DNA of 64,000 bases from Bilabrum cf. latius (Eukaryota): contig OZ237770.1 of assembly GCA_965178125.1 (NCBI GenBank), positions 124,001 to 188,000 on the forward strand, read 5' to 3'. The position numbers and the translations under genes are program-made. The notes beneath the pieces are model-generated. The model saw only the letters and a program-made list of their open reading frames with translations. It did no database searches and was not told the DNA's origin. Shown here piece by piece: positions 135 to 64,000 of the stretch (position 1 is the first letter of the stretch; each line of letters opens with the position of its first letter).

Positions 135-1379
135 ATGCCAGTTGAATTCGCGAATCAAGCTGACATCTATGCGTCAAAGAGTCCCATTTGGGATGGCTCT
201 GGCGGAATACGTGCAGAAATGGTACAGGATATACAGCACAAGTCTCGCGACCTATTTACAGGACACATTCCAGCATGTGGAGAGAAGTGGCACCAAGAAA
301 TCCTTGTTGCCACTGGAGATGCCGTAATTACTGCTGTGAAAAGGCGCATGATTGCTGTCAGACTTGGATAGCATGCCAATATCTAGCAAACCACTGTAAG
401 GTAGTCTGGCCAAATCCGTTTCGCTACGTGTAAGTCCCGTTCACTATGCGTGCGTGCAGCGACAAGTACTTACTTATTAATTTTGCAGGGCTATTGTCTC
501 GAGTACAAGGGAAAGCCAGCGAAGGTAGTCGTATTTGCTCCAGAACGTAAAACAGACCTGTTCTCGTTGGTGAGCAAATGTGGGGGCTTTGGTACTGTAG
601 GTGTTTCAATTCATGTAGCACGAGAAATCATCCTTGCGCTTGATCATGTGAATAGGCGTCAGATTGCGCACCGTGACATCAAGCTGGAGAGCATCGCATT
701 GGGTGAAGCAGGAAATATTGTGCTGAGCAATTTCATTTACAGCATTCCAACCCATGATGGCAAAATGTGCCCGCTCACCACGAAGCTGAGGAGCGGAACT
801 AAGGCCTATGCAGCGCCCGAATCTCTAGCGGGGGCGGCGCACAACCCAGTGACGGCCGACATGTGGAGCCTGGGAATGCTGCTATTCTGCCTGGTCATGG
901 GGAGGCCGCCTTGCCGCGTGGCCGACGATTCGGACAAGTGGTTCCGCGTGCTGAAGCGCAAGAACAAGAGGGAGATGGACGAGTTCTGGACTAAGCACAT
1001 GCGGGCCTCTAGAATCAAAATCGACGCGCACGCCGTGCACTTCCGGTCACTGATCGAAGGGCTGCTGGAAGTAAACCCCCTGCGTCGCTTGCAGATGCAG
1101 GCTGTCAAGAAGCACCCGTGGGTGTGCACGGTGTGTCCGCCGATCGACACGTGCAGGGGCATGATCGTTAAGATGGCAGAGAGAATCGAGCGACGGCGCA
1201 GCAGTGCTCCAAAGAAGCCAGCAGCAGCGCCCAAGCAGGGAGGCGTGGGCATCGCCGCCCCTCGAGAGGGCGGACAGAAGCGGGTGGTAGTGACAAAGGC
1301 TGCCACTTCAGGGCAATGCGGCCGGCCCCCTCATATAACGGTGGCACGAAAGGTAAAACAGCCGGCCATGGCCCAATAA
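135..1379 (+). CDS. Ser/Thr kinase-fold protein (CAMK-like), probable pseudokinase; 2 exons (135-395, 489-1379)
   Basis: Motifs HRDIKLESI, GTKAYAAPE, ADMWSLG and HPW; DFG is replaced by NFI. The upstream exon reads RLG-TAG-HANI-TAG-QTT (TAG at 369 and 384), matching the alphaC-beta4 HxNI motif. GTAAG donor at 396 and TTTTGCAG acceptor ending 488 are in phase. Ends TAA. Start uncertain. Confidence 0.75.
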
Positions 1380-1602
1380 TGCAGAGAGAGTGGAGGAGGA
1401 AAGGGGAGGGGGCACAGCCGGGATTGCCTGCGTGCTGCCACCCTGCAGGTGGCGGCGAGACCAGGCATGACTGCAGCAGGCGGGGTTGCCAAACTCAGGC
1501 CCTATTTGTAATGTTGAGCTTAAGAGATGTGCATTGCGACGAATTCGGCTGGTGCATGTACCCGGATGGGTGTCAAAACCTAAAAGCTAGATCCGCATAC
1601 CC

Positions 1603-3084
1603 TCAGCCCCTTTGCATCTTGTACTAGCTGTCATCGCCGCCCGCCATGCTCTCCTGATGCTTCATCACGTTGTCCACCACGTGCTGGGCGAAGGGGTTGG
1701 AGCAGGTCCACGCCGGAGACACGGCGTTCAGCACGTGCGTGGACCGGGCGTCGCCCTCCACGAGGAAATCCATCACCAGGGAGCGCTTCTCGGTGTCCAC
1801 CAGCTGTGCCCTGATGCCTGCCTTGCCATACTCTGTGAAGTTCTCAAGACCCACGCCCTTGACAAGCTCGGAGGCGCCCTGCGCCATGTACTGCTTGGAA
1901 TACTTGCGCATCTCAGACATGGCAAGTCCCCTGAAATCAAAGGAGGCGTTCACGAAGAGTCCCATCTCGGTCATGGCGATGTCAATCAGTTCCTGCGCGT
2001 CAAAGTTGTCGGTGAAGCCGTACTGCTCCCGCCAGAATGCGGGTATGGCGGTCGGCCCGATCTTGCACTTGCCGTCCACGGTCACGGTGAAGTGCACCCC
2101 GAGGAAGGGCTGCTCCAGGTCAGGCACGGGGTACACGAGCCTCTTCAGAGGCACGTCGCAGTAGAGGTAGAGTCCCTTGAACGGGACGATGGTTAGCTAA
2201 GTGCCGAACTTGAGCTGGTGGGCCAGACGGTCGGCGTACAGGCCGGCGCAGTTCACCAGGTGACCCGCCTCGATGAACTCGTTGTGAGGCATCGCTCTAG
2301 TTCCGGTGTTCACCTTGACGGTGTGGCGAGCGCCCGACTCGGAGTCCCCAGGGATCACCCCGGTGCATTCGGAGCCGAGCACGAACTGGACCCCGGCCGC
2401 CTGGGCGTCGTCCCGGATCGCCATGGTGACCTCGCTGGGCCCCGCCGCTGCCGTCCTGGGCGACCACAGCGCTCGCTCGGTGGTTTTCGCGAGTGGCTCC
2501 AGCTCCTCGAGCTGCTTCTGGTCGATGACCTCGAGAGGCACGCCGTTCACGTCTCCGCGGCGTTTCAGCTCATCGAGCCCGGCGAGCTCCCCTTCGTTGC
2601 GAGCAACCACGACCTTTCCGCACTTGTTGATTCTGAGGCCCTTTTCGTCGCAATAGGAATGCAAGAATTGGTTACCCTGGGCGGTGAGCTTCGCCTTGAG
2701 CGAATCCGCGTGGTAGTAGAATCCTGCGTGCAGCACGCCGCTGTTCCGCCCGCTGGCATGCTGCGAAACTTCAGTTTCTTTCTCCAAGACAACTACAGAG
2801 CAGTCTGGGTGCCTCTTCTTCAGCTCCCATGCGATGTTGATTCCAATGATCCCGCCACCTACAATCACAAAGTCGGCTGACTTTGGTAGAGACGCATTGG
2901 CGGCTGCTGCGAACCCCCGACTGTTCTACTACTATGCGAATCCATAGCTGACCGTCGACTTGTGTCCCATCATGGACGCTGCTGCCCGGGTGCCGGCCTG
3001 ATTGGCACGTGAGGCGAGCGGCTACCAGCGTCGCGCCAAACTTCGCGAGGCCTGGCCCACATACGCGCGGGCTCTTCTAAGCAT
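1603..3084 (-). CDS. L2HGDH: L-2-hydroxyglutarate dehydrogenase/oxidase (LhgO/L2HGDH family FAD oxidoreductase) with probable mitochondrial presequence
   Basis: One frame from MLRRARAYVGQ (3084) through DFVIVGGGIIG, HASGRNSGVLHAGFYY, NCAGLYAD, IVPFKGLY, YPVPD..PFLGVH, AGIRAQ and NAVSPAWT to TGA at 1603-1605. Requires reading TAG at 3022-24, 2926-34 (TAG TAG TAG), 2197-99 and 1624-26. Confidence 0.92.
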
Positions 3085-3130
3085 TACAATAGATCGTAGG
3101 AACCGGTTAGATCTGTTTGTATGAAACTTG

Positions 3131-6100
3131 ATGTACCAGCTGCTTACCAGCTGTAGTGGTGTGTCAGTGACAAGATGCGTCTTGCGACTGGCGCCGCGCG
3201 CCGCAAGGTTCCGCAATTCATTCATCGATATTTCAGATTTCGGATTTCAGCACCACAGTGGGGCATTTATGCAGCGTAAGCATGCGCATATTGGATTGCG
3301 CAAGTCGCATCTGATTCGGAACGTGCCAGATCCAGGTTCGGAAACCGTCTTGCCGGCTGGTTCCAATGCTTCTCCATCGCAAGAACTGCGTTTGGTGAGG
3401 CTAGTTTGTGATATGCTCGAACCCAATAAATCAAAGGGCACTGCACTGAAAGAGTGTTGCTAGAGGTTAAGGGGGTGGCGGTGCGACCTGCGAGCAGATG
3501 CAGCAAGTATCCCCCAGACAATGGAAGCCATGGCTAATTGTGTAGCTCAGCCCATCGCCGGCAGCAGCATTAGTATGGACGCAGTGAGCAGCCGACTGCG
3601 GCACCGTTCCTGGCGTGAAGATGTTTTGAGTTCTGATCGCCTTTCAGTAGCTGTAGCGCTCGCGAGTGGGGTTGTGCTTGCGGACCTTTCAAAGGCAGCA
3701 ACTCCGTACAGTGCTGCACGATTCCATGAGATCAATCGCAGGCCGAAATCTATTTTCTGGCATGCTGCGTCCGTAGGCAACACTCGGCTGTGTCTTATGC
3801 TGGGTCTTCGCCTGGCATTGACCATGCTGCGTTGCGACCGCACCAGCGGGTGCAGCCGGCCGCATCAACGTCTCGGAGTTAATGATGACTCGGAGGGCGA
3901 GCGCGAGCGCGGCATCGAATGTACCGGAGGGGATGCAGGAGACGCTGCCAAACAACACAAGGACTCGCCATCAGTGATCCGTGGCAAAGCAGCTTACGCC
4001 ATGTACGAGATGTGGGAGCTCGCGCACCACGCAGGCAACACGTTGCTGCAACGTGCACTGGGCATGTTTGCGATCCTCGGTAGAGGCGGGCCTGCCTTGG
4101 GCCTTAGAGCCCGAGATACTGGGATGAAATCTGCCTCAGAAGGACAGTCAGCATCTTCCGTAGCAGAAGAAGATAAAATGGAAGATGGCGATGAAGGGAC
4201 TGAAAGGTGCACACTGACATCTGCTGCTGTATCTGCTGGTGCATCAGCTGATGCATCTGCTACTGCAGCATCCTCACACGTGGCCTCGCCCTCTGCTGTC
4301 ATACGTGACACTGTCAGTGGTACAACTCGTATCGAAGAGGCGGTGCTTGGCTTCGCACCTAAGAGTGGAAGCGGTCTCAAGCCAGTAGCAATGGAGTGGC
4401 GTGCGATTCTTAATAACCAGTTGCTTGACGGGCAAGGGGGAGCATGGGGCTGCGGCCCTAGCAATATTGTGCCACCCGCTAGCTCTAGCGAATCATCGTC
4501 CAGCAACGCGATTTCATAGAACGGCCTGCTGCAGGTGCCCACGGTGGCGTGCGCACGTGCCACCAGCTGGGCACTGGGGGTGGAGGCGGCTGCCGCTCTC
4601 CTTCTCAGCGGATTTGGGCGGCTGGCCACGGCGATGCAAGCACCAGTCCGACGAGGAATATTGCACGGTGGTGCTGCGCAGAAGAAGAGATTGGTCACGG
4701 GCTACCGCTGGGAAGAGGAGGGGCAGTGCGGCATCCTCGGCCAGGACCACACGGGCGGTGCAGTGACTGCTTTCAGGTGCGCACGGGAGTCCTGGGCCAC
4801 AGCGCGGGTCATGATCGGCGCGTTGCAGGCATTCTGTCGCGATGACAGTGCTTCCTCGAACGAGAATGCATTGTATGGTGGTTCAGGTCATCCCTGCCGC
4901 ATCCTCCAGAGGCACCTGGTAGCTGCCAGTAGCGCCTCGCTTGCGGGAGAAAGAGGGTGTCAGGAGAGGTGCATCGCGTTGCTACAGAAAACGGAGCTAG
5001 TTCATCCGATTCAGTGGAACAGCATGGTCAGGATCCCTACTTCACTGATACAGGCCTACGTCCATTTCCATGGTGGCTTGGGTAGCATAGAAGAGGACCC
5101 GCTGCTGCAGGAGTGCCAGAAACCGGTTGCGAGCATGTCCAATATGTTCGAGGCAATCCCTTCGTTTACGCAGAAACTGAAGCATGTGCACATGGCTGGC
5201 TGGGTCAAGTCGATGCTTCGTATGGGAGATACTGCCGAAGAACTGAGTGATGCGGTGCTCAAGCCGATGCTGAGGTGGTCGCTGGCGGACGCAGGCGTCG
5301 TGCCCTCGCCCTGGGCTGGCCTCGAATCTGCACGTTTCTTATCCATGTACCGCACTTGCCTGGGGTCTTCATCACGAACGTACAGGCTTTTGGGCAATGT
5401 GCCACATGACCTCACCTTCCCGCATGGCCCGTTTGGCATCTAGGGGAAGGGCGGTGCGTTGCCTGCCGGAGCCTTGCTGCTCTCGCTCCGGATGGCGAGG
5501 AGGCACGGGCAGTCCAACGCTGGCAATGCTCCGCACGCACGTCCCCGTCAAGAGGCGCAGAAGCTCGCTCGGTGTGACGACGATGAGCTGTGGACAGGCA
5601 GTGGTGCCAGGCGCGTGAGAATGTCTGTGGATTTCAGCACTGCATTCCTGCGGCAGGAGCTCTGCGTTTCACGCACAAGTGGCAAGGAGCCATGGAGAAA
5701 GAATTAGAATATGGCTCGCGATGATCTCCCTGCAAGCAACGCACTGGCACTTGCAGGGTGCCACTCTTCCAGATAGAGCGCAACTGGCACAGATGGAGCA
5801 GTAACTGATACATTGTCGCGCTCACCAGCTGGAGCATGGTCAAGGCAGGACACGGTATCTCTAGTATGCGAAGGAGTCGCGGGTGATCCTTACTTTGATG
5901 ACTTGGGCGAATCGTGGGTTTACTACTTAGGGTGCATTCCGGTAAGCATTGGCTGCCTGCACCGGGTTCCAGCCGTTGCTCGCACAGGCGGTGCAATCGG
6001 TGGCGGCATGGCACTACTACTGATGTTATGTAACGAAGCCTTATCCAGGGATTATCCCGCCTTTGAATCATGGCAGAGAACATTCCTCCCATGTCCACTG

Positions 6101-8335
6101 TGGGTGCTTCTGCTTGGGCTGGTTACTCTTGTTATGGTTGTGTTCGAGGCCTGTTACACTCGGGTTTTCCTGTGGATTCGAGATCGCCTGCTGCCAAAGA
6201 ACAAGGATACTGCTCTGGACGCAACTCTTGCCATGCGGCTGCAGTTCCCGTATTATGTGGTAGGATAGCTGCAATCGTCTATGCGTGAGTGGAGGCAAAA
6301 CAATCCGCTGAACTGGACCCCAGGTGAGGCGGCTGCATGGGTGCACCTTGGGGTGTGTCCAGCGGACTTGCTGCGGGTGTGCCTTTCGCAGTGCTGCGGC
6401 AGTTTCGCATCGATGCAGCGACAGGACTCGATGCGGGTTTTGAAGCTCATGGCAGTTGCGTGCATCGGCTTAGTGGAAGGGAAGTGTGGCCGTGCCTCCG
6501 GAACAGCGCGCAGTATGCGTGATTTGCTGGAGGCTGGTGCATCAGCGACTCTTGTGGGCGGCAGCCGTGATATGTCGAGCGGATCATCGAAGCGAGTGAC
6601 TCGATTGCAGCGCGCCGCACTGTTCTTGCGCGACTGGAGTGCCTTAGACGACAAAAGTGCCCGGACTCGTGCAGATCTACTCGGCCTTTCAATCAGCGGA
6701 ATGCTTGCAGTTGCGCGGCACCATGTGCTCCGAAACTACACGGATGAGCGAGTAGAGCGAGAGGGTGCGGATCCCTCCCAGTACAACCCAGTCGACCCGA
6801 GGGACATCGAGCACGCCGGGCATGTCGCGAGAGGCAGGGCAGTGAGAGCGCTGTTCGAGTCCAGGAATCAGATGCCCCCGGGCTGGCTGCCCTCGAAGCG
6901 GCTTGGGGCCAGTACCCTTCGCCTGCGAAGCTAGATTCAGAGCATGCTCGAGGACCGCAACCGCAGGATGGAACGGTGGCTTGCAGTGGCCCGAACGAAG
7001 GATCCCGTCCGTGGAGGCGAGCAGGAGCTGCAGCGCATTGCGGTGCAGCAAGCTCCACTCGTCACGCCATTTTCAGCCACACGGGCACCGGATGGATCGC
7101 GAAGTCTCGCCGAAGGTTCGCTGTACGGCGACGTGTCTGTATGGGCAAAGAGGCAGGAGGAGAGGGAGGCAGCACGCAGAGCCGCAGCTGACCGAAGTAG
7201 GCAGGGGGTTGATCGCGAGGATGAAAATGATGAGGATAGCGACCAAGAGCCAGAGACAGGCGGCGGGTCGGGCGAGTGTTCAATGGTAGGAATTCCCTCT
7301 GGCGCCGATGCCCAGTCCGGATCCAACAGCTACCCTGCCAGACCTAGCTCAAGGCGCAGAGATGCATCGACGGACCGGAGCGAGGCAGATCCCGGCCCGG
7401 GGCTGCGTGCTCTCTTCATGGGTGCGCAGCTGACTGGGGCTGCGATCCGATCCCGGCTGCAGCTGTCGAGGCGATGGAATCCGTTGCGGCAAGCTGTGTT
7501 GACGACCCCCCCTGCGCTGCTGTAGATTTAGAGCCCCCAAGACTTGCTGGCTCACGTGCTCTGCTGCTCAGAAGAAGCCGTGCTTGGCAGATGGTGGAAA
7601 GGCGGCGAAATCAGCCCAGCGTCACAATAGGGCGATGATGGTGGGGTTGGAGCGCCGCCACCTTGTGTTGGCATTAAGGAGACAGAGTCACGGGACAACT
7701 CGGAACGGGAGAACTCTGCGGATGGAGTTCGCCGGAGATAGAGAGATGGTGAGAGCACGACCGATCAGAGCAATGAGGCATCCGCCTAGCACGATGAGGA
7801 ACAACAGAAAGACGGTAGCAAAGGCACAGATGGAATCCCTATACAAGCGTCTCGGTTCCATGACCACCGTCTCAATCCCTGGGTTGGCGGACCAGAGGAC
7901 ATCGAGCTGTATCATAGGGTGAACACGTGCGAAGGCATCGTCAAGCACGCAATGCAGAAAGACAAAGAGCAGCTAGCAATGGGAATGGCTAATTCTGACG
8001 CGGATGCTGAAAATGCGGAACGCTGCACCGGTGCCGAGGCAGATTCCTGCGACAAGCCGTCATTGCATGCAGGGTGCGATGCAGACGATGCAGCCGATCA
8101 AGATCCCCCCGTAGTAGGCGACTAGGTGAATCCATTGATTGAGAAAGATGTGCTGCTGGTGCAACGTCTCCTGGAATCGTTGGAGGTCTTGCACCCCGAC
8201 GTGGTGCAGGTAGCCAGGGTACTCTACGAGTGGGCAGAGGTGGAATTTCCCTGGATGCATGAGAGGAAGAAGAGGCTGCTCATGCATAGAAGGGCGAGCG
8301 CGGAGCTGATGAAGAGGACGGCTTTCGCCTCGTGA
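3131..8335 (+). CDS. Large hypothetical protein (~1700 aa) with one hydrophobic segment
   Basis: Nine track ORFs (3128, 3521, 4535, 5459, 5813, 6281, 6944, 7919, 8126) share one frame and are separated only by TAG: 13 TAGs at 3461, 4517, 5441, 5705, 5774, 6266, 6932, 7523, 7529, 7628, 7739, 7787 and 8123. First non-TAG stop is TGA 8333-35. Start uncertain; no family recognised. Confidence 0.75.
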
Positions 8336-9617: not shown

Positions 9618-10500
9618 TTAAGCAATCTGGTTGCACATGTTCTGGAGAACACCTCTGCATGTCTCCACGGGCGGGCACACCGTGCACACCCACGGGTGTC
9701 GCATCACTGCTCGGACATCCATCCTTTGGTTGGGATCCACGTGCAGGAGGCCCTCGATCAGAGACCGGAAGCGGGCAGCATGCTGGTCGATCCGGATCTT
9801 AGAAGCCCTGACGTGCTTGGTCCAGAACTCGTCCAACTGCCTCTTGTCCCTGGCCTTGATCACACGGTACCAGGGATCGCAGTCCTCGGCAACACGGCAC
9901 GGGGGTCTTCCCATGACCATGCAGAATAGAAGCACGCCGAGGCTCCACATGTCGGCCTTGATAGGATCGTGTCTTTGCTTGCGAATGGCTTCTGGTGCAG
10001 CGTAAGCTCTCGTGCCCCCAACGCTGCTGGAGTCTCTCGGTAGCATGCCAGCCGTCATTGCAGGCTCAACACTCTGAAGACCAACTAATCTAAGGTCGAA
10101 GCCCGGTGTGAGGCGCACGTTCTCGAGCTTGAGGTCTTTGTGAGCAACGTGCTTTGCATGCATGCCGTTCACCTGCAGTAAGAGCTGCCTCGCTGTGTGT
10201 ATGGACAGGCCGCGAGCGCCCAGCCCGTGCCGCGCTTTGACCACATCAAAAAAGTCACAGCGGAGGTACGGACCGAGAAATATGGCCCGAGCCTATGGTT
10301 GAGAGTACATGTGCTCTACAGGCCTGGCGAAGTCTCTGCCGTCGTGTGCGGCGCCGTGCGGTTGAGGCGACTCATGGCGCGTGTCGCACACCGAGCATGC
10401 TGCAGCTACTTCAAGCTGCTGTGCCTTCAGACCGCACTATTGCGCTATCGCTAGATAGCATGGACGTGAGCACTGCGGTATCCGATTGGGATGGTTTCGG
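9618..10500 (-). CDS. Ser/Thr kinase-fold protein, probable pseudokinase; paralogue of 135-1379
   Basis: Motifs HKDLKLENV, GTRAYAAPE, ADMWSLG and HPWVCTVCPP; DFG is replaced by GLQ. The frame stays open upstream of 10244 if TAG is read through. Ends TAA. Start approximate. Confidence 0.75.
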
Positions 10501-32416: not shown

Positions 32417-33835
<1,419 letters not shown>

Positions 33836-45364: not shown

Positions 45365-45577
45365 GAACCAAACTGCGCATTCAACTGAACCGTGAGTCTA
45401 GGATAGACTTAATAATGATTACTATATTGTGCTATCATGCCGCAACGCTTGCGGCTGTCAGTCGAGGTTATGAGCCCGTCAAAGCGACCAACCCGGAAGA
45501 AGTCAGGCAGACAGCGCTCCGTGTATGGATTCGTTTATTTCATGCGTTGGATAAGAAGTATGCTTCACCTATCCATA

Positions 45578-54230: not shown

Positions 54231-54759
54231 AACGGATCAATGTATTTTGCCTTTGACTGCGTGCGATGGACTAGTGTCCTTAGAGACCGAAAGGATGGCC
54301 CCGCGCGGGATCGATCCGTTGCCGATGAGAGTGTCGCCGCGCAATTTCCAACGCCAAGTTCCGCAATTCAGATGTAACGCGTTGTTTACACGGATTTTCT
54401 GAGTTTTGCTGCCAGAGGGCCCAGCTGGCACAAGTCCTGGACTGTACGGCTAACCGCGGGGTTCTACCTGAATCCGCAATTGTTTGGGTTAATATAGGCT
54501 CGGTTCAGATCATTGCAGCAGTCGCTTCGCTCCGTTGAACGACTGCATCGAATCTTGCAAGCCACTGAAGCCGTCCGAGCCCCAGCCAGGATCTCGTGCG
54601 AGCGTTGTGTGAAAGCAGGTTGCATTGGAAGGTGGTGCAGAGGAATTGTGTGCACATTTTCACCTGTTTGTAGCTGGGCTTCGCTTGAAACTAGTGATTG
54701 CCGCGTTTGCTCGTGCTTTCAGTGAGAGGCTCGTCACTCGGACTTGAATCGATAGCGGT

Positions 54760-57700
54760 ATGGCAGGCAACAATCCGTTCATGGCACGCCCAGGCGCGCC
54801 TCAGGGTGGCGGAAGACCACCCGCCACATTCGGTGCGCGGCCGGGTCAGCCTTTCGGCGGGGGTGCCCCACCGAGAGGACCAGCCAGTTTCGGTGGCCGA
54901 CCGCCGCAGGCACCCATGGGCGGCGGCCCCCCGACGGGCGCGTTCGGTGGAGTGTCTGCCGGAAGCAGTAGTGCCGGCGGGCCGCCGACTTCGTTTGGAA
55001 ACAACGTGGGTGGGGGGCCCGGGGCCGGCCCGCCCACCGGTTTCGGGGGCGGAGGGCCGCCCGTGTCAGGCGGATTTGGAGCCGGAAACGGTGGACCGCC
55101 CATGTCCATGGGAGGCGGTCGCCCGGGACAGCCCCCACCGATGAGCATGGGCGGAGGCGGGCCCGGTAACGCGAATGGCCCGCCTGTGTCGTAGGGCGGG
55201 GGGCCAGGAGCCGGCGGAGGTTCGGTGGCGTTCATGAACCCCCACCAGCCGGGTGGGCCCCGCCCGGGCATGGGTGTGCCGGGGGGCAACATGCCCGCGG
55301 CATTCGCCGGGGGTCAAAACTAGCCGTTGAGCGGGCAGGCCGGGATCCGGGGGCGGCCGGGCGCTCCCGGCGGTGGGGCCATGACCGCTGCGCTAGGGGT
55401 CTCCGGGCCCAAGGAGCCCCTAGCCCAGGTGGACGAGGACGCCAACTGCGACCCTGCCTACATGCAGCTAACCACGGGCGTGATACCATCTTCCGCGCAG
55501 CTGGCTGCGTCCACCGGGATACCCCTGGGAGCCTGCATCCATCCACTCGCTGACCTCCCAGGGATGCCGGAGCTGCCCACTGTGGACTTTGGTGCCTCAG
55601 GGGTGGTCCGCTGCAAGGCTTGCCGGGCGTACGTAAATCCATTCGTGGAATGGCTGGAGAACGGCCGCATGTGGAAGTGCAACATATGCGGGGTGATCAA
55701 CGAGACCACGGCCAGCTACTATTGCGGCCTCGACGGCAACGGTCAGAGGCTGGACAGGAACGACAGGGCTGAGCTGTGCAGGGGAAGTGTCGAGATCATC
55801 GCGCCGGTGGAGTACATGGTGCGGTCCCCGCAGCCACCCGCGTTCACGTTCCTCTTTGACGTGTCCTACCAGGCAATCGAATCGGGCCTGCTGCGAGCGG
55901 CGTGCGCCTCGGTCAAGGAGCAGCTCACGAGCCTTCCCGGCGGGGACAGGACGCTCGTGTGCTTCATGACGTTTTCCAATAGCGTGCAGTTTTACCGGAT
56001 CCGACGGGATCGGGAGAAGGCTGCGATGCTGGAAGTGCCTGACGTGGACGATATGATGCTGCCCACACCGGAGGACCTGCTCGTCACACGGACCGAGTGC
56101 ATCGCGCAGATCGACGCGCTGCTCGAGGCGCTCCCCGAGATGCACGCAGGGAACAAATCCACGGACGTGTGCCTGGGCCCAGCCCTGGAGGCCAGCTACG
56201 AGGTGATCAACGCGGTGGGAGGGAAGGTGATCGTGTTCCTCAGCTCGCTGCCCACCAAGGGCAAGGGCAAGCTCAAGCAGAGGGCCGCGCCGAGGATGCT
56301 GGGGGGCGCGGAGGAGCACAAGCTCATGTCTCCCGAGGAGACGCCGGAAGGCCTCTATTACCGCCAGCTCGCAATGGAGATCAGCAGGCAGCAGATCAGC
56401 GTCGACGTGTTCTGCGCCTCGAAGGGGTACTGTGACCTGGCAGCCGTGGGCGCGGTGAGCCGATTCACGTCGGGGCAGGTGTTCTACTACCCGGGCTTTG
56501 ACGCCTCCGTGGACGGCGAGCGGCTGCGGCATGACATCGGGCATGACCTCACCCGTCGCACGGTCTGGGAGTCCGTCATGCGGGTCCGTTGTTCCTCGGG
56601 GATGCACGTCCAGAATTTCTACGGGAGCTTCTTCATCCGCGGTCAGGACCTCCTCACGATGCCGACCGCCAACTCGGACACGGCCTTCACCATCGACCTG
56701 CACCACACCAACTCGCTCGCTCCCGGGTCGACCATCGTGCTGCAGGCCGCGCTGCTGTACACTTCCTCGGATGGGGAGCGCCGCATCAACGTGCACACCC
56801 TCTGCGTGCCGGTTGCAACCTCCCAGCGGGACATCTTCGCCACTGCGGACAGCGACCAGGTGGCCAACATGCTGAGCAAGAAGGCCCTCGACCAGCTGCT
56901 GCGGGAAGGTATCCCTCGGGCGAGGCAGTCGGTGCACCAGCAGGTGGTGGCGCTGGTGCGGTCGTGGACCAACTTCAGGAAGAAAAGGCAGGCGGCGAAG
57001 GAGGCCAGGGAACAAGCGCAGCAGCAGAGCGGGCAGGGGCCAAGCGCGGAGCATTCGGAGCTGGATGACGAGGACGACGAGGACCAGCAGCTGTCGGACG
57101 GGACGGCCCTCGGGCTGAGAGAGAACATCCAGCTGCTGCCCCTGTACTGCCTCGCGATGCAGAAGTGCCCCTTGTTCAGGGGAGGCACTGACGTGCCCCC
57201 GGACTACCGCTCCTCGCTCGTGTACAGGTCGCTCTGCATGCCAACCGTCATGGCCACCACCTTCTTCTACCCCCGGATGTTTGCGCTCCACTCAATGCCT
57301 GCCGAGGCGGGGACGGCATTGAGCGACGAGGAGATGGACAAGCTTGAGGAACAAGGGGAGGACCCTAACGCGGCGGGGTTCGGGAACGTTCGTCTGCCCC
57401 CCCCCGTGTCGCTGTCAGCCGCACACCTGGATTCCAAGGGGGTGTATCTTCTCGAGGACTCAACGGACATGTTCGTGTGGTTTGGGAAGGACTGCCCGGG
57501 CCCCCTCATGCGCGAGTTCCTGGGCATTGAGAGCCTCAAGGGCATCGACACGGGGTCGGCCCCGTTCCCCCAGGTGGACTCGGACAAGTCGAGGAGGACG
57601 CACGCAATCATCGCCGCGCTGGTGGAAACATACGCCCAGGAGCCCACGATCAGGGTAGTGTACCAGTCGGCGGGAGACGAACTCGAGCGAAGGTTCGCTT

Positions 57701-58284
57701 GGCGACTGGTGGAGGACCAGCAGCAGTTCAGGGGCGGCTCCATGGCCTACCCCAGCTACGTGGATGTGGTGAGCAAGGAGGCGGCGGGGGGGCCCAAGCT
57801 GCCCGGGGGGCCCGGCGCGAGTGGTGGTCCCCCACCTGCCCTGGGGGGACCCCCCCCAGCTGGTGGGGGCCCGGGGGGTCGACCCCCTGCCATGAAGCAG
57901 CAGCTGCCGGGGGCCCGGCCGGGTATGATGCCGCCGTCGAGCCAACCCGGGGGCATGATGATGCCACCTGGGTCCACAGCCGGCATGGGCATGGGCATGG
58001 GTGCCAGGCCTGGGCATGGCGGGCCGCCCCCGGGAGTGTCCCAGGGGTTCGGAGCCGGAAATGGCATGGCCCGGCCGGGTGTCCCCATGGGCGGGCGGCC
58101 CGGGTTTGCAGGCGGGGCTTTTGGCGGCGTGCCGGGCGGTGGACCACCACCGAGCGCAAGTGGTGGACTGGGGGGTCCCCCTCGGCCCATGGGAATGCCA
58201 GGAGGAGGCGGCATGGGGGCCCCACCGAGGGGTCCTGGAGGGTTCGGGGGTGGGGGGTTCGGGGGAGCGATGCCCGGGCAGTGA
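54760..58284 (+). CDS. SEC24: COPII cargo adaptor Sec24 with Gly/Pro-rich N- and C-terminal extensions
   Basis: Zinc finger RCKACRAYVNPF..WKCNICG, EYMVRSPQPPAFTFLFDVS, trunk domain, ESVMRVRCSSG, QAALLYTSSDGERRINVHT, YPRMFALH and gelsolin-like region. The N-terminal ORF 54760 joins in frame via TAG 55192 and 55321. Ends TGA. Confidence 0.95.
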
Positions 58285-59759
58285 CCGAGTTGTGGGTTTT
58301 GTCCCAGCGAGTTCAAGTAATGGAATGTAAAGCAAACGGAAATCATGCGAAAATGATTGATTCACAACGAATGTACTCCTTGTGACTTGCGGCGGAGTCA
58401 GCGACTCGAAATGCCGACATGGTGAAACTCACCGGCGGCAGTTCTGGCAGCTGCGGCTCGGATGGTCGCAGACTGGTCGGCCATAATCGGCAATGAGATT
58501 GATGAGCGCGCAGCTCCACTCAATTCAATGGGATCTTGCGTGTTGATGAGAGATGCGAGCTACGTAGAATGTGAGCGTTATCCTTCAGTTATATGTATGG
58601 TACAATTAGAAAGCATGGATTGCGGTGCGATCAGCAAGGAGCCCACTTGGCAAGGACGCTGATCCTGGAGTGAATAGAATGCGTGCAGCGCAAGCCGTAT
58701 CTTTCGGAGCGGCGAACGTATGTGTTGGGCTTTATCTTTTTACTGCTGTTCGTGCCCTGAAAAAGCTTGTATGTAGTCCACCAGGGGGATTGCTTCATTT
58801 TCTGTTGGTATCCTCCAATCACTTCACAATTGACTTCGATTTATGTTTTGGCAACCGACTATGATTGTTTACCAGCATCAAATGCTTTTTAATTGAATAT
58901 TATCTGAACCATCCGTTTTTGCAGCAGCTTCATTGGCGATAGAGAGCAGAATCGCCTGTCAGCAGCCGGACAACCAGCCTGAGCCGGTGAGCGCATCACA
59001 GTGTGACAACGCGGTTTTGTCGATCGCAGTGCTGCCTCTCAACGCCCTTGCTTTCAACACATTCCGTTCTCTATTACGATTAGGATGGATCAATGGGCTG
59101 CGCTTACAGGCATCATGCTGATCGTAACTTCAAAGCATCCGTATGGCGCCGTGAGGAGATGCCTGCGAGGATGCTGCTGTGCAAGAACTCTTTGACTTCG
59201 AGACGCGCGTGGGTGCAAAAATCCCGGTGGGCAGAGCATGGAGATGGCAGTGAAGGAGAGGAGGATGATTGTACAGGCTCGCTCTCATCGACAGAACAAA
59301 TATCGCTCCTTCCGACTCCTCCAAGCGAGCGGTCGAGAACAGGTCGTACTGTAAATCATCACCCAAGATGTATTGAGTCCGCCAATACGCCAAAGCAGCC
59401 ACATTCGGATGTTTAGTGTATGGTAGGGCGTCGCAGAAGGAAGTTTCCCAAGATGCTTCGCGCTACTATGACGGGTAGACCAACGACAGCACGGCATCTG
59501 TGCAACTTGTAGTAGGCAGGTGCCCCTCCCTCGCGGGTGGCCAAGTCTGGGGCGAGCAGCAGGCCAGCTGAGCGAGTACGAAGTAGGTGGATTTTACACT
59601 CACGAGAAGAGTAATGAATGGTGCCGCTCACCAGCCCGAGATTGCGAGTGGCATTAGTGAAGTCGCGCGCGGGGGCGAGAGAGGCGGAAAATGTGAACAA
59701 GGTGGATATACTAATAGGGTAGAAGTATCAGGATCCACAAAGAGGGAATGCACATGGAA

Positions 59760-60190
59760 AAGGGGGCGGCGGGACCCACACGATTGCGGGGTTGGTACCA
59801 CAGCCAGCCAGCCATCCAGCCATGAAGCAGCAGCTGCCGGGGCCGCGGCCGGCCATCGCATGTTGCCACCACTGGCAAGCCCGTCCGGTGCCGGAATGGG
59901 CATGCTGCATGGGCATGGGATCGGACCTGATATGGGCCCACGGTGAGGCACCGGGCCGGGCCACTGCATGGGGTGCGAGGCCCATGTCCTAGGGACATGC
60001 CGGGTGCCCGACCCAGGTGTGGAAGTAGTGCCTTGGGGGGCGGCATCGTGTGCCCGGAAGAGACCCACCTCCTTCAGGCGGGGGTGCACTTGGGAGCCCA
60101 TCAAGGCTAATGAGGAGACTGGGGGGAGTTGGTATGGGGTCCGCCAAAGGGGCAGGGAGGGTTCGGGGCGGGGCTGGTGGGTTTGGCAAC
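59760..60190 (+). pseudogene. Degenerate partial duplicate of the Sec24 3' low-complexity tail
   Basis: Exact 24-nt match GCCATGAAGCAGCAGCTGCCGGGG at 57889-57912 and 59819-59842, followed by loosely collinear frameshifted similarity. Boundaries approximate. Confidence 0.55.
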
Positions 60191-61648
60191 GCTCGGCCCG
60201 CGCAGCGTGGGGTGCTGCTAGTCGCGGCTTGGAGAGTTGACTAGTCTACGCCGTGGGAGAGACATTGCGGTTCAGTCGACTGTCTACCAAGGGTGTTTAG
60301 TATAGCCGCATCGCTGGTACGAGGGTGGCTTACTCCGATCCTGGATGGCTTGGATTGCTGCCAGCAGCACGGTGGTCGCAAGATTGTCGGTCTGGCTTCC
60401 CCAAGGAAAATATGCAAAATTGATCACAACCCTGTCTGTATGGGGTCATGCTTCTCTACACAGAAGGAGTGTCTGCAATAGCGTGAGCTGCTTAGTTTAA
60501 ATCACGCTAAAATGAAAGGAGGTGTCGGTCATGGCGCGATCTGTGCATTGCTTGGTGTTCGGCTTGGAAGCCGCTTGCATTGCATCATCCGATTCGATAG
60601 ACAGGACCTCTCATGATAGAAGCTGGCTCGTACTTTTTGACGTAAATCTGCAACATGTGATCATTTAGCTCCGATAGTTCATAGGATGTACCTACTAGAC
60701 TAGAAGTGGCTTCCCTTGTCTCACTTCACTTCACACTTCTAACGAATTGCAAATCACGCGTTTCTCACCTTCTCTCCTATATGGACTATCCCTAGATCCC
60801 CATCTTCGTACGGCTAGAGCAGATCAACTGGACGTAACCGCTGAAGGAGCCCATGCAGGGCAGACACCCGGGCAAGAGGTATGTAGGCTACGCTTTTTGG
60901 ACGATTCCAGCAAATGCCCTCTACCACCCAGCAGCAGCACGGCGCATGATAATTGTATTGTCGTTCAACCATTTCGATATTGCAGGTAGGGTTGGAATGT
61001 TGTGACCGTGCACATAGGCCTAGTTTGGGGCGGTGCCAGGAGGCGTAGGTGTGGCAGCGTGAAGAAGCATCCGGCAGGTTGCAAAAGAGAAAGTCAACTG
61101 CAAGGCGGGGAGGGTAGCTGATCCAGTCACGATGGACATAGCACTATGAGCATCAAGAAACGGACGATACTTCCCGGACCTGTTCTATTTCGGAGACGGA
61201 ACAGAGATTAATACGTCCAACGCCCGATTGGCAGGAATCTACTATATAGACAGAGCTTCAAACTCTCCGAGGCGCTGATACAGCCAATTTGCACGATGTG
61301 CCAATTGCACGAGCAGAATCCTGCGTTGTTGGATCGAGTTCGCCAGGTAGGACCCTTTTCCAGGCAGGTTAGACGACCAGGCGAGCTGTGACAGCGCACC
61401 AAAGCAAGCACAACATTACTTTTCTTAAGCCAGCTGCTCAAACTACATCTAGATGGAGGTACCATGAACGGGGGGATTAAAGTGGTCAGTATATCGGACA
61501 TAGGGTGCCGTTCATTAAGATCAGATCGGAACGCGTGACTGGCTTTTCATTACGCAGTACAGTATACATGAATGGCCAGGTGAGGCCCACACAAAAGAAA
61601 AACAGTGTTATGTCTGTAATCTATGCTAACACCATGCTAACACCCAGC

Positions 61649-62928
61649 TCAGCTTCCCTCCTCCGCCACGGCCTCGACCACAGCCTCGCCCTCCCCTTCA
61701 GCAGCAGCAGCAGTCTCCTCCGCCGCACTGCCAGCCGCCGCCTCCTCGGCCTGTTGTTCCCCAGCAGCTGCCTCCTCATTGGCGGCATGCGCCTCATCTG
61801 CCGCCCTCTCCTTCTCGTCCCCGCCCACCGCTGCGTCGCCATCTCCACCCGCGGCTGCACCACCGTTCGGTGCATCTGCCCCCCCAGCCGCCGCGGCGGC
61901 GTCATCTTCGGCGGGCGCATGGGCTGCTGGTGACCGGCTCTCGCCCTCGCCCTCCCGCCGCTCATCGGAAGCAGCGCCGCCGGTGGCGGCGGCGGGGGGC
62001 GCCCCGCGGTCGTCCCTCCTCGCACCACCGTGCGATGCACCTCCCGCACCGCGCGAGGGTCTGCTGACCGGGTCCAGCCGGATGGTGGCAGTCGCCCTGT
62101 GCCTGTTGGTGATCTCGCTCATGTCCAGCATGCGGAGTGCCCGCTCCATGCCGTCTCTGGAGAGGAAGTGCACCCGGGCCCGACCGTCCCCGATCACGTC
62201 GGCCTTGCCCACGTCTGCAGCCTGCCGCATGTGGTCTTTGACGTCCTGCGGGGTGTGACGAGTGATGGTGTGACGAGTGATAGTGTGACGAGCGCGCAGT
62301 CATGGGTCCGATGCATCGTGCATGGTGCGCAGGACTGCAAGGACAGCGCGAGGCACGCGTCCTCACCTGCCAGCTGGTGCCGTCTGGGATGCCAGTTACT
62401 TCCACGGTGAATCCAGTCTCGACGGCGGGGCTCCTCGCCGGCCTCTCACGCCCGGGCGGTCCCCGACGGTCGCCCCGATCGCCGCGATCGACGCGGTCGC
62501 GCGGGCCAGCTCCCTTGGCAAACTCCACGGTCACGCGCCTACCATCGAAGTTCACGCCGTGCCTCTCCCTGACTGCATCTGCGCACCCAATAAAAAATGC
62601 GGTTCGCATGAAGTAATGTTGGCATGAGGCCTGCTTGCGATCCATGGCAGTGCCTCCGAGTGGAAAGAAGTGGGCCCCTTTGACACTGCTGAAGAAGCAG
62701 TACCGCGACACAAATCCATAGGTATCGGATCAAAATCATGCAGCTATTGGACTTACCCTCCGCATCTCTAAGCTCGTCGAATGTCACAAAGGCAAACGCG
62801 ACGCCAGGCTGTCTGCGGTTGAGCTTCACGCTAATCGTGCGAATGGGTCCAAACTTTTCGAACATCCGGCCAAGCTCGTTCTCGCGAACATCATCAGGGA
62901 GATTTCCGACGAACAAACGGCCAGCCAT
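61649..62928 (-). CDS. SRSF1/SRSF9-like splicing factor (RRM plus pseudo-RRM); introns 62756-62579 and 62366-62246
   Basis: MAGRLFVGNLP..FAFVTFDELRDAE|DAVRERHGVNFDGRRVTVEFAKG, then SWQ|DVKDHMRQA (SWQDLKD signature). In-phase GT-AG introns. Ends TGA. Confidence 0.9.
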
Positions 62929-63444
62929 GGTAATTATTGAGCTCGTATGTGGCCAAAAGCATGCCTGTTTGGCAGACTGAGATTCTGAACTGGCACGCAA
63001 CAAACAGTCCGAGAGCGACCATATCAAATACAGTAGCCGCGCGGTCTGTTTATTCGTAGACCGCTCGCTGGCGACAATATTATTTTATATACTGCTGCTT
63101 AGCGGGTTCAGGCCTATCATAGTCGCTTGCTGCCGAGCAGTCGGCCGATTGATCCACACGGTCCACTCGGCAAAGGAATCAGCATATTTTCTGACTTGGC
63201 TTGATACCCGTAGCCACAGCAATACGAGGATATGAATCCTTCCACATTTGGTTAGCATCGTGGGGCCCGGGCTGGCGCTGGCCCTGGAAGTGGGCAGGAA
63301 TCGCAGGGTGGGACGCACCACGTTGGCGCGCGGCCTCGTCCAGGGGCACCCAATGGTGTCATGAGGGTGCAAGGGCTGGCTGGAAATTGGAGTTCAAACG
63401 GAGCAAGGCCCATACAGCCAGGCAGGCCAGGGCCGGGTTCTGCT

Positions 63445-64000
63445 ATGGCAGGCCAGTCCCAGAGCAACGCTGGCGGCAATACTGCTCGCCCCGCGGTCCT
63501 TGGCCAAGCAGCTTCTGGAGCGCGACCGCTGGCAGTTAGACCACCTGCATCGATGGGTGTATTTGGATCTGGAAGGCCGGCATCTGCAGGTGCATTCGGA
63601 GTTCGTGGCCTTCCGGGCTTGCCGGCTGCGAGCGGTGCTCGCCCGCGAGCAGTTGCCCCGGCATCGGCCCGGCCCAGCACTGCGCACTCGTCACACGGAT
63701 CGGTCACGGCACGGCCGGGCTCCATGCAGGGGTTCGGTCGCCCCGTTGGACTGTCGTTCGGCAGGCCTGGGCCCAGCACTGGCACTGGTACAAGCCCAGG
63801 CACAGGGTCGACTGGATTCGGGCAGGGCAAGGGCAAGGGCAAGGGCAAGGGGCAGGGCCGTGCTGACCCCCACGCGGGGCACGGCCCGAGACCGTCTGGC
63901 GCGCACTCGTCACAGCCAGTCCCGAGACCACACCAGCCGCAGTCCATTCGGCCCCCTCCACAGTCCCGGTCCCAGCCACCGACATAGGCATAGCAACCGA
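63445..64000 (+). CDS. 5' part of a Gly/Pro/Gln-rich protein running off the window
   Basis: MAGQSQSNAGG.. stays open to the window end if TAG is sense (PPQSRSQPPT-TAG-A-TAG-QP). Start could be 63361. Confidence 0.55.

Follow-up and report, generated by a model that had tools for sequence, protein, structure and literature searches.

In the window, that is, the whole stretch of 64,000 nucleotides of nuclear DNA that was analysed, UAG is best read as a sense codon, most likely for glutamine, with UGA in most genes and UAA in some as the sole terminators; we put the probability of this reading at about three in four, for a code as seen in 64 kb only. Support for the core reading (TAG sense and probably glutamine, TAA and TGA stops), which a preliminary description of the DNA had proposed, comes from homology, an unbiased read-through test and spliced transcript contigs. 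The word 'probably' used there for glutamine is of the right strength.

Among 21 stop-to-stop open reading frames (ORFs), 18 carry in total 80 in-frame TAGs and none an in-frame TAA or TGA, a lack that for TAA is partly circular, since the ORFs were delimited by TAA. The earlier count of about 70 TAGs in about 19 genes was thus a fair estimate; the described lack of internal TAA was confirmed and extends to TGA, no accompanying frameshifts were found, and in-frame TAA as frequent as TAG, looked for as contrary evidence, was not seen (0 TAA, 80 TAG). The ORFs end 17 times at TGA, four times at TAA (1379, 8463, 9618 and 39693, as previously described) and never at TAG. After removal of the first 50 codons, the 16 long ORFs hold 65 TAGs in 13,596 codons. 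Part of the 80 TAGs lies in 5' stretches that are probably UTR or intron, one example being the TAG at 45400, ahead of an intron documented by a contig. When termination is limited to TAA and TGA, there are ORFs of 1791, 1736, 1302, 1178, 1120, 1000 and 994 amino acids, as compared to 986 for the longest ORF in the standard code. Four of these long frames are:

11076 to 16451, minus strand: 1791-codon ORF ending at TGA, with TAGs at 14570, 14156, 12515 and 11978.
3125 to 8335, plus strand: 1736-codon ORF of unassigned family, ending at TGA, with 13 in-frame TAGs (3461 to 8123).
16806 to 20714, minus strand: 1302-codon kinase-like ORF ending at TGA TGA, with five in-frame TAGs.
42434 to 45418, minus strand: 994-codon ORF ending at TGA, with a 5' intron (45261-45363) and 11 TAGs in the main exon (44026 to 42640).

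The coding score of the 1791-codon ORF persists beyond each of its four TAGs. The 1736-codon ORF gave no match in a Pfam search, and its length free of TAA and TGA is, at the triplet counts found, much greater than chance would allow. The read-through test took standard-code ORFs of 80 codons or more whose tail looks coding; past the stop, the coding signal persists in frame for 17 of 30 TAGs, one of 16 TGAs and none of four TAAs. Equally, when stop-type codons flanked on each side by 40 codons free of TAA and TGA were considered, both flanks looked coding for 26/273 TAG, 1/79 TAA and 2/313 TGA; two of the three TAA/TGA exceptions, among them the sole TAA, opposite a kinase gene, are antisense to genes, and the third falls in a decayed segment. 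Within Pfam envelopes (2937 codons) there are nine TAGs, no TAA and no TGA.

Whether UAA has been reassigned together with UAG (UAR to glutamine, NCBI table 6), in-frame TAA being too rare at high GC to be noticed, depends on the behaviour of TAA, which ends four ORFs, three of them listed here:

72 to 1379, plus strand: protein kinase ending at TAA (Pfam Pkinase, E 3.2e-24, from residue 154).
9618 to 10589, minus strand: paralogous protein kinase ending at TAA, followed by TGA two codons on.
38545 to 39693, plus strand: secreted B_lectin-like protein ending at TAA (39691-39693), with TAGs at 38737 and 39355.

TAA is indeed the rarest stop triplet (525 on both strands vs 898 TAG), and the CAA:CAG ratio of 12:97 in the Pfam envelopes predicts about one TAA, so that its absence from that sample alone is not significant. 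In the 13,596 codons, however, a CAA:CAG ratio of 110:373 applied to 65 TAGs predicts about 19 in-frame TAAs, with none observed. Furthermore, four genes terminate at TAA with the coding signal ceasing there (0/4 continue), reading through TAA as sense adds almost no length to the ORFs, and the lone TAA with coding-like flanks is the antisense one. The coding score of the B_lectin-like gene falls after its TAA, and its transcript contigs X5 rec5 (38602-39823) and X7 rec12 (38507-39873) end 130-180 nt beyond it. Joint reassignment is accordingly highly improbable. In the first kinase, the TAGs at 369, 384 and 402 lie in an N-terminal stretch to which no PDB kinase alignment extends (these begin at residues 165-184), and belong to the part of the 80 that is probably UTR or intron.

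The assignment of UAG as a sense codon is strengthened by genes in which TAG falls within conserved protein families:

1603 to 3246, minus strand: L2HGDH-like FAD oxidoreductase ORF ending at TGA (Pfam DAO, E 1.7e-54), with TAGs at 3024, 2934, 2931, 2928 (the latter three consecutive), 2199 and 1626.
21221 to 23605, minus strand: 794-codon ORF ending at TGA, with a weak MRH/CIMR-like stretch.
24455 to 28282, plus strand: Atg22-like transporter ending at TGA (Pfam ATG22, E 2e-26), with an exon 1 piece (24455-24919), a main ORF (24920-28282) and TAGs at 24845, 25853, 26075 and 28094, that at 25085 being doubtful.
28370 to 29689, plus strand: GHL15-family protein ending at TGA (Pfam GHL15, E 4.5e-14), with TAGs at 28436, 28526, 28709, 29210, 29567 and 29579.
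33960 to 37255, plus strand: 3' exons of an MTHFR gene ending at TGA, with introns at 34123-34348 and about 34488-34616 and a TAG at 34784 (Pfam MTHFR, E 3e-73; MTHFR_C, E 9.6e-79).
39908 to 42292, minus strand: ankyrin/fn3 protein ending at TGA, with eight in-frame TAGs (42208, 42073, 41725, 40894, 40618, 40354, 40207 and 39931).
47445 to 48900, minus strand: Ldh_2 (malate/L-lactate dehydrogenase family) gene ending at TGA (Pfam Ldh_2, E 8.7e-108).
52332 to 54236, minus strand: CFAP161 and EF-hand fusion protein ending at TGA, with TAGs at 54152 and 54071.
54748 to 58284, plus strand: Sec24 ending at TGA (Pfam Sec23_trunk, E 6.9e-66, and four more Sec23/24 domains), with TAGs at 55192 and 55321 within the Gly/Pro-rich N-terminus.

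All seven motif TAGs quoted in the preliminary description are in frame and correctly placed, with x for the TAG: FGTxLTIVPFKG (L2HGDH-like, 2199-2197, minus strand), CEYTIxW (794-codon ORF, 22507-22505, minus), RAWxYYDF (Atg22, 24845, plus), GGFxNAHELV (MTHFR, 34784, plus), GARVEAxNDAG (ankyrin, 42073-42071, minus), LREFTxKVF (Ldh_2, 48768-48766, minus) and GNWSEDx (CFAP161, 54152-54150, minus). While the TAG in CEYTIxW stands, the assignment to MRH is weaker than had been stated, the Pfam match being sub-threshold (E 0.0025, 18.4 bits vs a cut-off of 22.5). Equally, for CFAP161 the Pfam match is weak beside EF-hand matches, but the family is upheld by PDB FAP161/CFAP161 chains (E 1.7e-16 to 4.6e-9), whose alignments extend over both TAGs. 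PDB and homologue alignments, a check proposed beforehand, cross TAG without gaps or change of frame. Pfam DAO covers residues 125-523 of the L2HGDH-like ORF and PDB 8w75 aligns with residues 125-527, crossing TAG 2199 without a gap; in the translation of this ORF the stretch from the triple TAG to the FAD motif lacks Met. Ank_4 (E 8.4e-15, residues 18-96) crosses two TAGs, PDB alignments run through the MTHFR TAG, and the GHL15 alignment with 19 homologues is gapless at the TAGs. An HMM from 149 Atg22 homologues aligns both pieces of the transporter, with TAGs 26075 and 24845 on match states. In the Ldh_2 gene the TAG lies in exon 1, followed by an inferred intron, and the frame that matches an HMM from 79 bacterial homologues differs between exon 1 and the main exon.

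Contigs from two transcript studies (X5 and X7) retain UAG, as the preliminary description had suggested to check: these contigs show five GT..AG or CT..AC joints and no other letters against the window, and none is listed at a TAG. Such X5 contigs contain 27 TAGs, of which 12 belong to contigs with a splice joint of their own. Without other letters, X5 rec1 and X7 rec8 cover the Atg22-like region from 25419, X5 rec2 spans 28430-31986 (GHL15), X5 rec6 spans 41147-42302 (ankyrin/fn3) and X5 rec7 joins 42287-45260 to 45364 onward (994-codon ORF); the MTHFR joints (GT..AG) appear in X5 and X7 contigs, with the spliced frame unbroken and its TAG retained. A further spliced gene precedes MTHFR:

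32005 to 33760, minus strand: pepsin-like aspartyl protease gene ending at TGA (32417-32419), with introns at 33293-33426 and 33506-33611.

This gene shows CT..AC joints in the contigs, a stretch of 12 residues (not shown) in its spliced translation and no in-frame TAG. An ORF on the opposite strand (32019-33323, plus) with seven TAGs was rejected as a gene on the basis of joints, spliced translation and coding scores, being the antisense of the protease.

That the in-frame TAGs are untranslated, reflecting assembly errors, U-to-C editing, tiny introns or pseudogene decay, is a practically negligible explanation, for which the comparison of reads over 20 kb of the window, made with contigs only, which lose rare variants, provided no support. 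T-A-G kept in spliced contigs excludes editing, micro-introns and assembly error where covered; contigs from three further studies repeat the TAGs with no other letters and are contiguous across them with real introns removed. Furthermore, the frames are interrupted by TAG alone, never by TAA or TGA, with zero frameshifts, 18 of 21 ORFs are affected, Sec24 and MTHFR among them, and the same trait is found in a relative. In this metagenomic relative, L001 (78% protein identity), an RRM exon carries an in-frame TAG of its own, and both of the relative's genes end at TGA. The RRM gene of the window is:

61649 to 63003, minus strand: SR-protein (RRM) gene ending at TGA; the window copy is free of TAG.

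In tblastx of L001 against the window, TAG in the L001 copy is aligned with Asn in the window. L001 is also 78% identical to the CFAP161 fusion over residues 174-633.

As a sense codon, UAG most probably specifies glutamine. Codetta-like inference, a kind of test recommended for the genome and here applied to 12 TAGs that fall on match states of purpose-built HMMs, ranked glutamine first, with posteriors of Q 0.78, K 0.13, T 0.04, N 0.035 and E 0.013; the method decoded 55 of 57 sense codons correctly. In entropy-matched control sets of true Q codons, drawn from few genes and not independent, Q was called in 95% of 500 draws. The observed posterior was reached by 77% of true-Q sets and by at most 0.2% of those for every other residue. 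The log-likelihood difference LL(Q)-LL(K) was +1.79, within the 5-95% range of true-Q sets (1.0 to 6.7), and the margin over K was reached by 0/400 true-K sets, likewise 0/400 for E, T, N, R, L, Y and S. Leucine was rejected (LL(Q)-LL(L) +16.3 nats, 0/400 true-L sets reaching the observed value), as was serine (+5.6, 0/400), and matched controls also rejected Lys, Glu, Tyr and others (0/400 each), glutamine alone being consistent with them.

The margins over T and Y are low for true-Q sets, at the 0.3% tail. The alignment columns of nearly all TAG sites vary strongly (entropy 3.3-4.05 bits), which leaves little information per site. Hydrophobic columns occur at some sites: that at Atg22 TAG 24845 shows Y/V/L/I, and in the five PDB alignments shown, CFAP161 TAGs 54071 and 54152 stand opposite L, L, L, L, M and V, V, V, T, R. 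The call is fragile, leaning on the single Atg22 site 26075: omission of this site gives K 0.49 and Q 0.31, omission of both Atg22 sites K 0.60 and Q 0.17. UAG could thus be a codon for another polar residue, chiefly lysine, else threonine, asparagine or glutamate, read by a CUA derivative of the respective tRNA, which is unlikely. In its favour, K takes second place with all sites and first place in those omissions, K/E/R-type residues prevail in homologue columns at most TAG sites, and relatives of about 92% identity carry E, K and R there; two such relatives have E/E, K/K and R/Q at three sites, one Gln in six, with one close relative thus showing Gln at a window TAG site. On the other hand, true-K entropy-matched sets were called K in 500/500 cases and the observed margin was reached in 0/400, with E, T and N alike. 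Glutamine is by far the commonest product of nuclear UAG/UAR reassignment. It is also the best-supported residue here, in a call that rests heavily on one site.

A dual meaning of UAG, sense within genes and terminator near some 3' ends as in Condylostoma, karyorelicts and Blastocrithidia, is decidedly unlikely, though dual use may occur in two genes. In the L2HGDH-like ORF (TAG 1626) and the ankyrin protein (TAG 39931) a TAG stands six codons before the terminal TGA, whereby UAG termination may occur in some contexts; the coding score drops past 1626. The base following sense TAG is G in 18%, vs 36-45% after CAG/AAG/GAG (p 0.0016), a depletion that could reflect residual release-factor action. 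However, at about 0.5% TAG per codon chance alone should place a TAG among the last 10 codons of around one gene in 21, and no homology-defined end at TAG is seen in the window: the TGA of GHL15 coincides with the family C-terminus at the same end residue as in homologues, and the CFAP161 fusion ends at TGA where the protein of its relative does.

A code in which UAG means glutamine while UAA and UGA terminate (NCBI table 15 type) is described in PMC5304391 and PMC11687900 for the fornicate Iotanema spirale, the ciliate Protocruzia tuzeti and two phyllopharyngean ciliate lineages. As in Iotanema and Protocruzia, UAG alone is sense here, UAA and UGA terminate and glutamine is best supported. 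Unlike these taxa, the window has about 60% GC, ordinary GT-AG introns of 100-230 nt and large genes. Ciliate genomes and that of an anaerobic fornicate are unlike such a GC-rich, intron-bearing genome. The nearest named homologues are from choanoflagellates and the bicosoecid Cafeteria. The main stop is UGA here (17/21), whereas UAA dominates in the two taxa of the 2017 paper, according to that paper. UAG codes for leucine in the uncultured rhizarian exLh and some ciliates and for serine in Scotinosphaera (PMC5304391 and PMC11687900); the uncoupling of UAG from UAA, with UAA kept as stop, is shared, while both residues are rejected here by controls. UAR encodes glutamine (table 6 type) in many ciliates, hexamitin diplomonads, the oxymonad Streblomastix and ulvophycean algae (PMC11687900), and in the aphelid Amoeboaphelidium protococcarum (PMC6299283). 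With these the window shares a stop becoming glutamine and UGA still a stop, but TAA is not sense, ending four genes and being in frame in none. In the ambiguous stop/sense codes described for Condylostoma, karyorelict ciliates and Blastocrithidia nonstop, in-frame stops are likewise frequent, but here only one of three stops is affected and no gene of the window was seen to end at TAG.

The host would be a GC-rich, intron-bearing and flagellum-building eukaryote, the ribosomes of which take UAG as an ordinary sense codon, a trait that may have arisen independently, as the preliminary description proposed. A tRNA with CUA anticodon, pairing with UAG and not UAA (Panek et al. 2017), would decode it, the simplest source being a mutated copy of tRNA-Gln(CUG), and an eRF1 with weakened UAG recognition would accompany it, as expected here as in Iotanema and Protocruzia; the 64-kb window holds no tRNA gene and no eRF1 gene. 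A code in which UAG alone is sense is a rare variant already known from a few other protists, and the bearer of this Iotanema/Protocruzia-type code is apparently a different flagellate.

The window (G+C 51-68%) is tightly filled over its 64 kb, on both strands, with eukaryotic genes and ordinary GT-AG introns of 103-226 nt; high G+C together with introns of 100-230 nt is a combination which we take to be unlike ciliate macronuclear genomes. The following genes and long ORFs are present.

Genes and long ORFs of the window
Two paralogous protein kinases
1603-3246, minus strand: L2HGDH-like FAD oxidoreductase
Atg22-like transporter
GHL15-family protein
MTHFR with eukaryotic regulatory domain
Pepsin-like protease
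B_lectin-like secreted protein
Ankyrin/fn3 protein
47445-48900, minus strand: Ldh_2 dehydrogenase
52332-54236, minus strand: CFAP161 and EF-hand fusion
Sec24
SR-type RRM protein
Several very long ORFs, matching no Pfam family

Several of these genes and the sequence between them have features of their own. The Ldh_2 gene, with an in-frame TAG in exon 1 and an inferred intron after it, shares 53-58% identity with MAG homologues of Bacteroidota, Planctomycetota and Verrucomicrobiota and has the appearance of a gene of bacterial type that this eukaryote acquired long ago. Equally, the L2HGDH-like protein may be a bacterial-type LhgO, since some bacterial homologues are closer (51-53% identity, E to 3e-125) than the solved fly L2HGDH (E 5.9e-57). 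The stretch ~59618-60616 on the plus strand resembles the Sec24 3' end, with PAMKQQLPG... in both translations, is interrupted by frame changes and five TAGs, and probably represents an incomplete duplication of the Sec24 tail that has since decayed. At 48001-52000, G+C is 0.51 versus ~0.6 elsewhere and no convincing ORF or family match was found, while di- and hexanucleotide repeats in long ORFs at 17200-17600, 23400-23500 and 40900-41150 (all minus strand) translate into long (GA)n / (HE)n-type peptide runs.

The preliminary description had proposed that TAG is a sense codon located within conserved coding sequence, with TAA and TGA remaining stops. All motifs quoted for this proposal contain an in-frame TAG at the coordinates assigned to them; for the MRH motif the TAG is in place, but the family assignment corresponds to a sub-threshold Pfam match. 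In 21 ORFs, defined as stop-to-stop frames with TAA and TGA as sole stops, in-frame TAG occurs in 18 (80 in total, part of them probably non-coding) and TAA or TGA in none, an absence which for TAA is partly circular, as the ORFs were defined by this codon. In the trimmed set of the 16 longest ORFs minus the first 50 codons of each, 65 TAG stand against 373 CAG and 110 CAA in 13,596 codons; if TAA was also Gln, the CAA:CAG ratio applied to the TAG count predicts approximately 19 in-frame TAA, with none seen. Not accepted as coding were TAG 45400, located upstream of a demonstrated intron with a length that is not a multiple of three, and three TAGs of the first kinase (369, 384 and 402) in an N-terminal stretch without alignment to any PDB kinase. 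Equally, the plus-strand ORF 32019-33323 (7 TAG) was rejected as a gene, being antisense of the spliced protease gene. The Pfam envelopes (2937 codons) contain nine TAG and neither TAA nor TGA, and alignments versus PDB chains and homologues cross the TAGs of L2HGDH, MTHFR, GHL15 and CFAP161 free of gaps with the frame unchanged, in agreement with the proposed location of TAG within conserved coding sequence without frameshift. In the L2HGDH-like gene, three consecutive in-frame TAGs (2934-2926, minus strand, FAxxxNSRGF) stand between the only candidate start methionines and the FAD-binding motif; with UAG read as Gln, they would add QQQ to the presequence.

With TAG as sense, the longest ORFs reach 1791, 1736 and 1302 aa, compared to a standard-code maximum of 986, and reading TAA as sense gains almost nothing. 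ORF length is suggestive, not decisive, and was rejected as proof by itself, since ORFs are likewise lengthened when TGA, the most frequent stop triplet, is read as sense (80 ORFs with 300 aa or more). All standard-code ORFs with a length of 80 codons or more and coding-looking last 60 codons were subsequently assessed for whether the next 60 codons of the same frame are also coding by a codon-usage score, which treats stops as neutral (stop codons themselves score zero) and is mildly circular, having been trained on TAG-as-sense ORFs.

Read-through of standard-code ORFs by terminating codon
TAG: 30 tested, 17 with downstream coding
TGA: 16 tested, 1 with downstream coding (an off-frame ORF)
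TAA: 4 tested, 0 with downstream coding

The TAG-terminated ORFs without continuation comprise ORFs that are antisense or out of frame, ends of exons (Atg22 24845, Ldh_2 48768), low-complexity stretches and the L2HGDH-like TAG 1626, located 6 codons upstream of TGA. In a second scan of stop-type codons with 40 TAA/TGA-free codons on each side, both flanks are coding for 26 of 273 TAG, 1 of 79 TAA and 2 of 313 TGA; two of the three TAA/TGA exceptions are antisense to genes and one is located in a decayed segment.

Nine public sequencing runs, dating from 2025 and none recorded as RNA, contain the stretch; four of them share one organism label, cover it completely and may be its source, and five are from three further studies. 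Contigs, not raw reads, of the runs X5, X7, X8 and X9 were compared with 25419-45418 (20 kb), whereby the contigs of X5 and X7, which derive from two studies, lack five segments that are bounded by GT..AG (by CT..AC for minus-strand genes).

Segments skipped by contigs
34123-34348 and ~34488-34616: MTHFR introns, contig joints
33293-33426 and 33506-33611: protease gene introns, contig joints
45261-45363: intron of the 994-codon ORF, joint in X5 only

As introns are skipped and the joined MTHFR exons form one uninterrupted frame that has the N-terminal sequence canonical for MTHFR and retains TAG 34784, the X5 and X7 contigs are cDNA-like, whatever their label; a DNA origin would need processed copies of three genes. 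Long contig pieces contain no other letter compared to the window and no mismatch on any TAG, with 27 TAGs on gene-sized X5 contigs, 12 of them on contigs with their own splice joint. The anticipated retention of UAG in mature mRNA is thereby observed in spliced contigs from two studies, and assembly error, U-to-C editing and micro-introns are ruled out at the covered sites, as spliced contigs keep TAG. UAG is decoded as sense in the mRNA of most genes. In four genes, contigs end 91-412 nt past TGA or TAA, as expected if these codons are real stops. As separate observations, many unrelated contigs of the matched runs pile up at 40760-41426, and at 42287-42302 the 3' end of the contig of the 994-codon gene overlaps the 5' end of the ankyrin gene contig by ~16 nt, which suggests very short intergenic spacers at this location.

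The stops are as reported previously, with TGA ending 17 of the 21 ORFs and TAA the other four (1379, 8463, 9618 and 39693), and none of these 21 ORFs of the 64-kb window needs TAG as its end. That TAA is still a stop is concluded from the coding signal and transcript end at these positions, with none of the four TAA-terminated ORFs continuing and one contig transcript ending shortly after TAA 39691, from the minimal effect of TAA read-through and from the lack of any credible in-frame TAA. Equally, TGA has been retained as a stop, with its single continuation among 16 being an off-frame ORF and its absence from the Pfam envelopes. A joint reassignment of UAR to Gln (table 6 type) was rejected, as neither the 21 ORFs nor the Pfam envelopes contain in-frame TAA and as TAA ends four genes. 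Some termination at UAG might have left traces. In two of the 21 ORFs of the 64-kb window, TAG is located 6 codons before TGA, and the base after the 65 sense TAGs in frame in the 16 long ORFs is G in 18%, compared to 36-45% after CAG, AAG and GAG, with A raised to 34% (chi-square p 0.0016). The low frequency of G may be an avoidance of a strong termination context.

The amino acid was addressed by a Codetta-like residue test, in which match-state emissions of profile HMMs built from homologues only are collected per codon in aligned window frames, including a term for the unknown share of a codon among the codons of a residue.

Homologues in the profile HMMs
GHL15: 29
Atg22: 149
Ldh_2: 79, bacterial
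L2HGDH: 30, bacterial
MetF: 30, bacterial
CFAP161: 3

Of the 57 sense codons with at least 5 sites each, 55 are assigned correctly by this method. For the 12 TAG sites on match states, the posterior is 0.78 for Q, 0.13 for K, 0.04 for T, 0.035 for N and 0.013 for E. In control sets of 12 sites matched by column entropy, with draws that reuse few genes, Gln is called in 95% of 500 true-Gln draws and the observed posterior is reached in 77%, while sets of any other residue reach it in at most 0.2% of draws. The observed Q-over-K margin of +1.79 nats is located within the true-Q 5-95% range (1.0 to 6.7) and outside the true-K range (-7.5 to -4.0), being reached by 0 of 400 true-K sets and equally by 0 of 400 sets for E, T, N, R, L, Y and S. 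Among the other residues, Leu, Tyr, Trp and Ser are in practice ruled out; specifically, a UAG to Leu code as in the rhizarian exLh type does not fit, with a joint log-likelihood for Leu 16.3 nats below Q and none of 400 true-L sets reaching the observed value. The proposed assignment to Gln is probable in that Gln is the best residue and the only one that fits the matched controls, but the call rests heavily on Atg22 26075, a site with Q as its highest emission, and K leads without this site (K 0.49, Q 0.31). Nearly all scored TAG sites are located in highly variable, mostly polar columns and two or three in hydrophobic columns (Atg22 24845; CFAP161 54071, opposite L/M in the five PDB alignments shown), and two relatives with ~92% identity possess E/E, K/K and R/Q at three TAG sites. 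A joint protein search with the ankyrin/fn3 and 994-codon ORFs (39908-45418, minus strand) gave 25 ankyrin-repeat matches and no close relative, so that its 20 TAG sites provided no data from that search and the ankyrin sites were left out of the residue scoring. Including strong precedent, we assign a probability of about 0.8 to UAG encoding Gln, with Lys as the main alternative.

Relatives of the organism are represented by database protein fragments with 98%, ~92% (two), 83% and 76% identity to window proteins. The fragment with 98% identity, P0059, stops directly upstream of TAG 25853, at the point where gene calling under the standard code would truncate it. The metagenome contig L001 encodes a CFAP161-EF-hand protein of 78% identity and an SR-protein gene with its homologue at window 62045-63003; the fusion of CFAP161 with an EF-hand pair and C-terminal extension is kept in L001 (2-1390; 78% over residues 174-633). 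L001 begins inside the CFAP161 gene, downstream of the TAG sites of the window, and a second metagenome record, L003, has the same sequence, with ORFs identical over the shared part. The RRM exon of L001 contains an in-frame TAG at the position of a window Asn and both L001 genes end in TGA, so that one further species or more has the TAG-sense trait too. The window and the L001 relative differ in their TAG positions. The gene order in L001 (CFAP161, then SR protein) differs from that of the window. Four CFAP161 homologues were found, the close one, P0055, being without N-terminus. Among X5, X7, X8 and X9, no diverged relative for a TAG versus CAG codon comparison was found on 25419-45418. CFAP161 is an axonemal inner protein, and the presence of its gene implies that the organism would possess cilia or flagella. 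The nearest named homologues of GHL15 belong to the choanoflagellates Choanoeca and Salpingoeca and a diplonemid, and those of Atg22 to Cafeteria (twice) and Symbiodinium; as these lineage signals conflict, the organism is left unplaced, and a look-up of Sec24 in the ESM Atlas gave broad eukaryotic clusters only, without finer placement.

In nuclear codes, a reassignment almost always affects UAA and UAG jointly. The code of the window is a real, rare variant of an already known type. According to two papers, reassignments of UAG only are few, comprising Iotanema, Protocruzia, some phyllopharyngean ciliates, a rhizarian and Scotinosphaera. The code proposed for the window (UAG as Gln, with the stops UAA and UGA) has been described in Iotanema spirale, Protocruzia tuzeti and two phyllopharyngean ciliate lineages; UAG is reported as Leu in a rhizarian and ciliates and as Ser in Scotinosphaera (PMC5304391, PMC11687900). 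In Amoeboaphelidium, TAG and TAA are both reported to encode Gln (PMC6299283), whereas TAA is a stop here. In the open full-text literature, no choanoflagellate, heterotrophic flagellate or stramenopile with a sense UAG was found; the producers of the genome may already know of the code.

As to the mechanism, only the anticodon CUA reads UAG while ignoring UAA, as set out by Panek et al. (2017; PMC5304391). A tRNA(CUA) would be expected as the UAG decoder by this logic; most simply it might be a one-base derivative of tRNA-Gln(CUG), and it would be accompanied by an eRF1 that binds UAG less strongly. Searches with ARAGORN gave no tRNA gene in the window or in the metagenome contigs L001-L004, an Rfam search of the window no RNA family, and no eRF1 gene is among the ORFs of the window.

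Tentatively, and at somewhat below even odds, the window might represent an undescribed independent origin of the UAG-only to Gln code, in a lineage of free-living, GC-rich flagellates that belongs to neither ciliates nor fornicates and has several environmental members. On this reading, the fast turnover of TAG sites between relatives with 78-98% identity and the avoidance of a following G by sense UAG would suggest a young reassignment, with an eRF1 still competing at UAG. On the practical side, gene calling with the standard code cuts short 18 of the 21 ORFs here and database proteins of relatives are visibly cut at TAG, as in P0059. Interest to specialists would arise mainly if phylogeny shows an independent, recent origin. 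A further example, from a GC-rich flagellate that has ordinary introns and environmental relatives and in which the main surviving stop is UGA and not UAA, would be independent information on the way in which UAA and UAG are uncoupled by eRF1 and a CUA tRNA. If the young, independent origin is true, the organism would provide a natural system to watch the capture of a stop codon under way.
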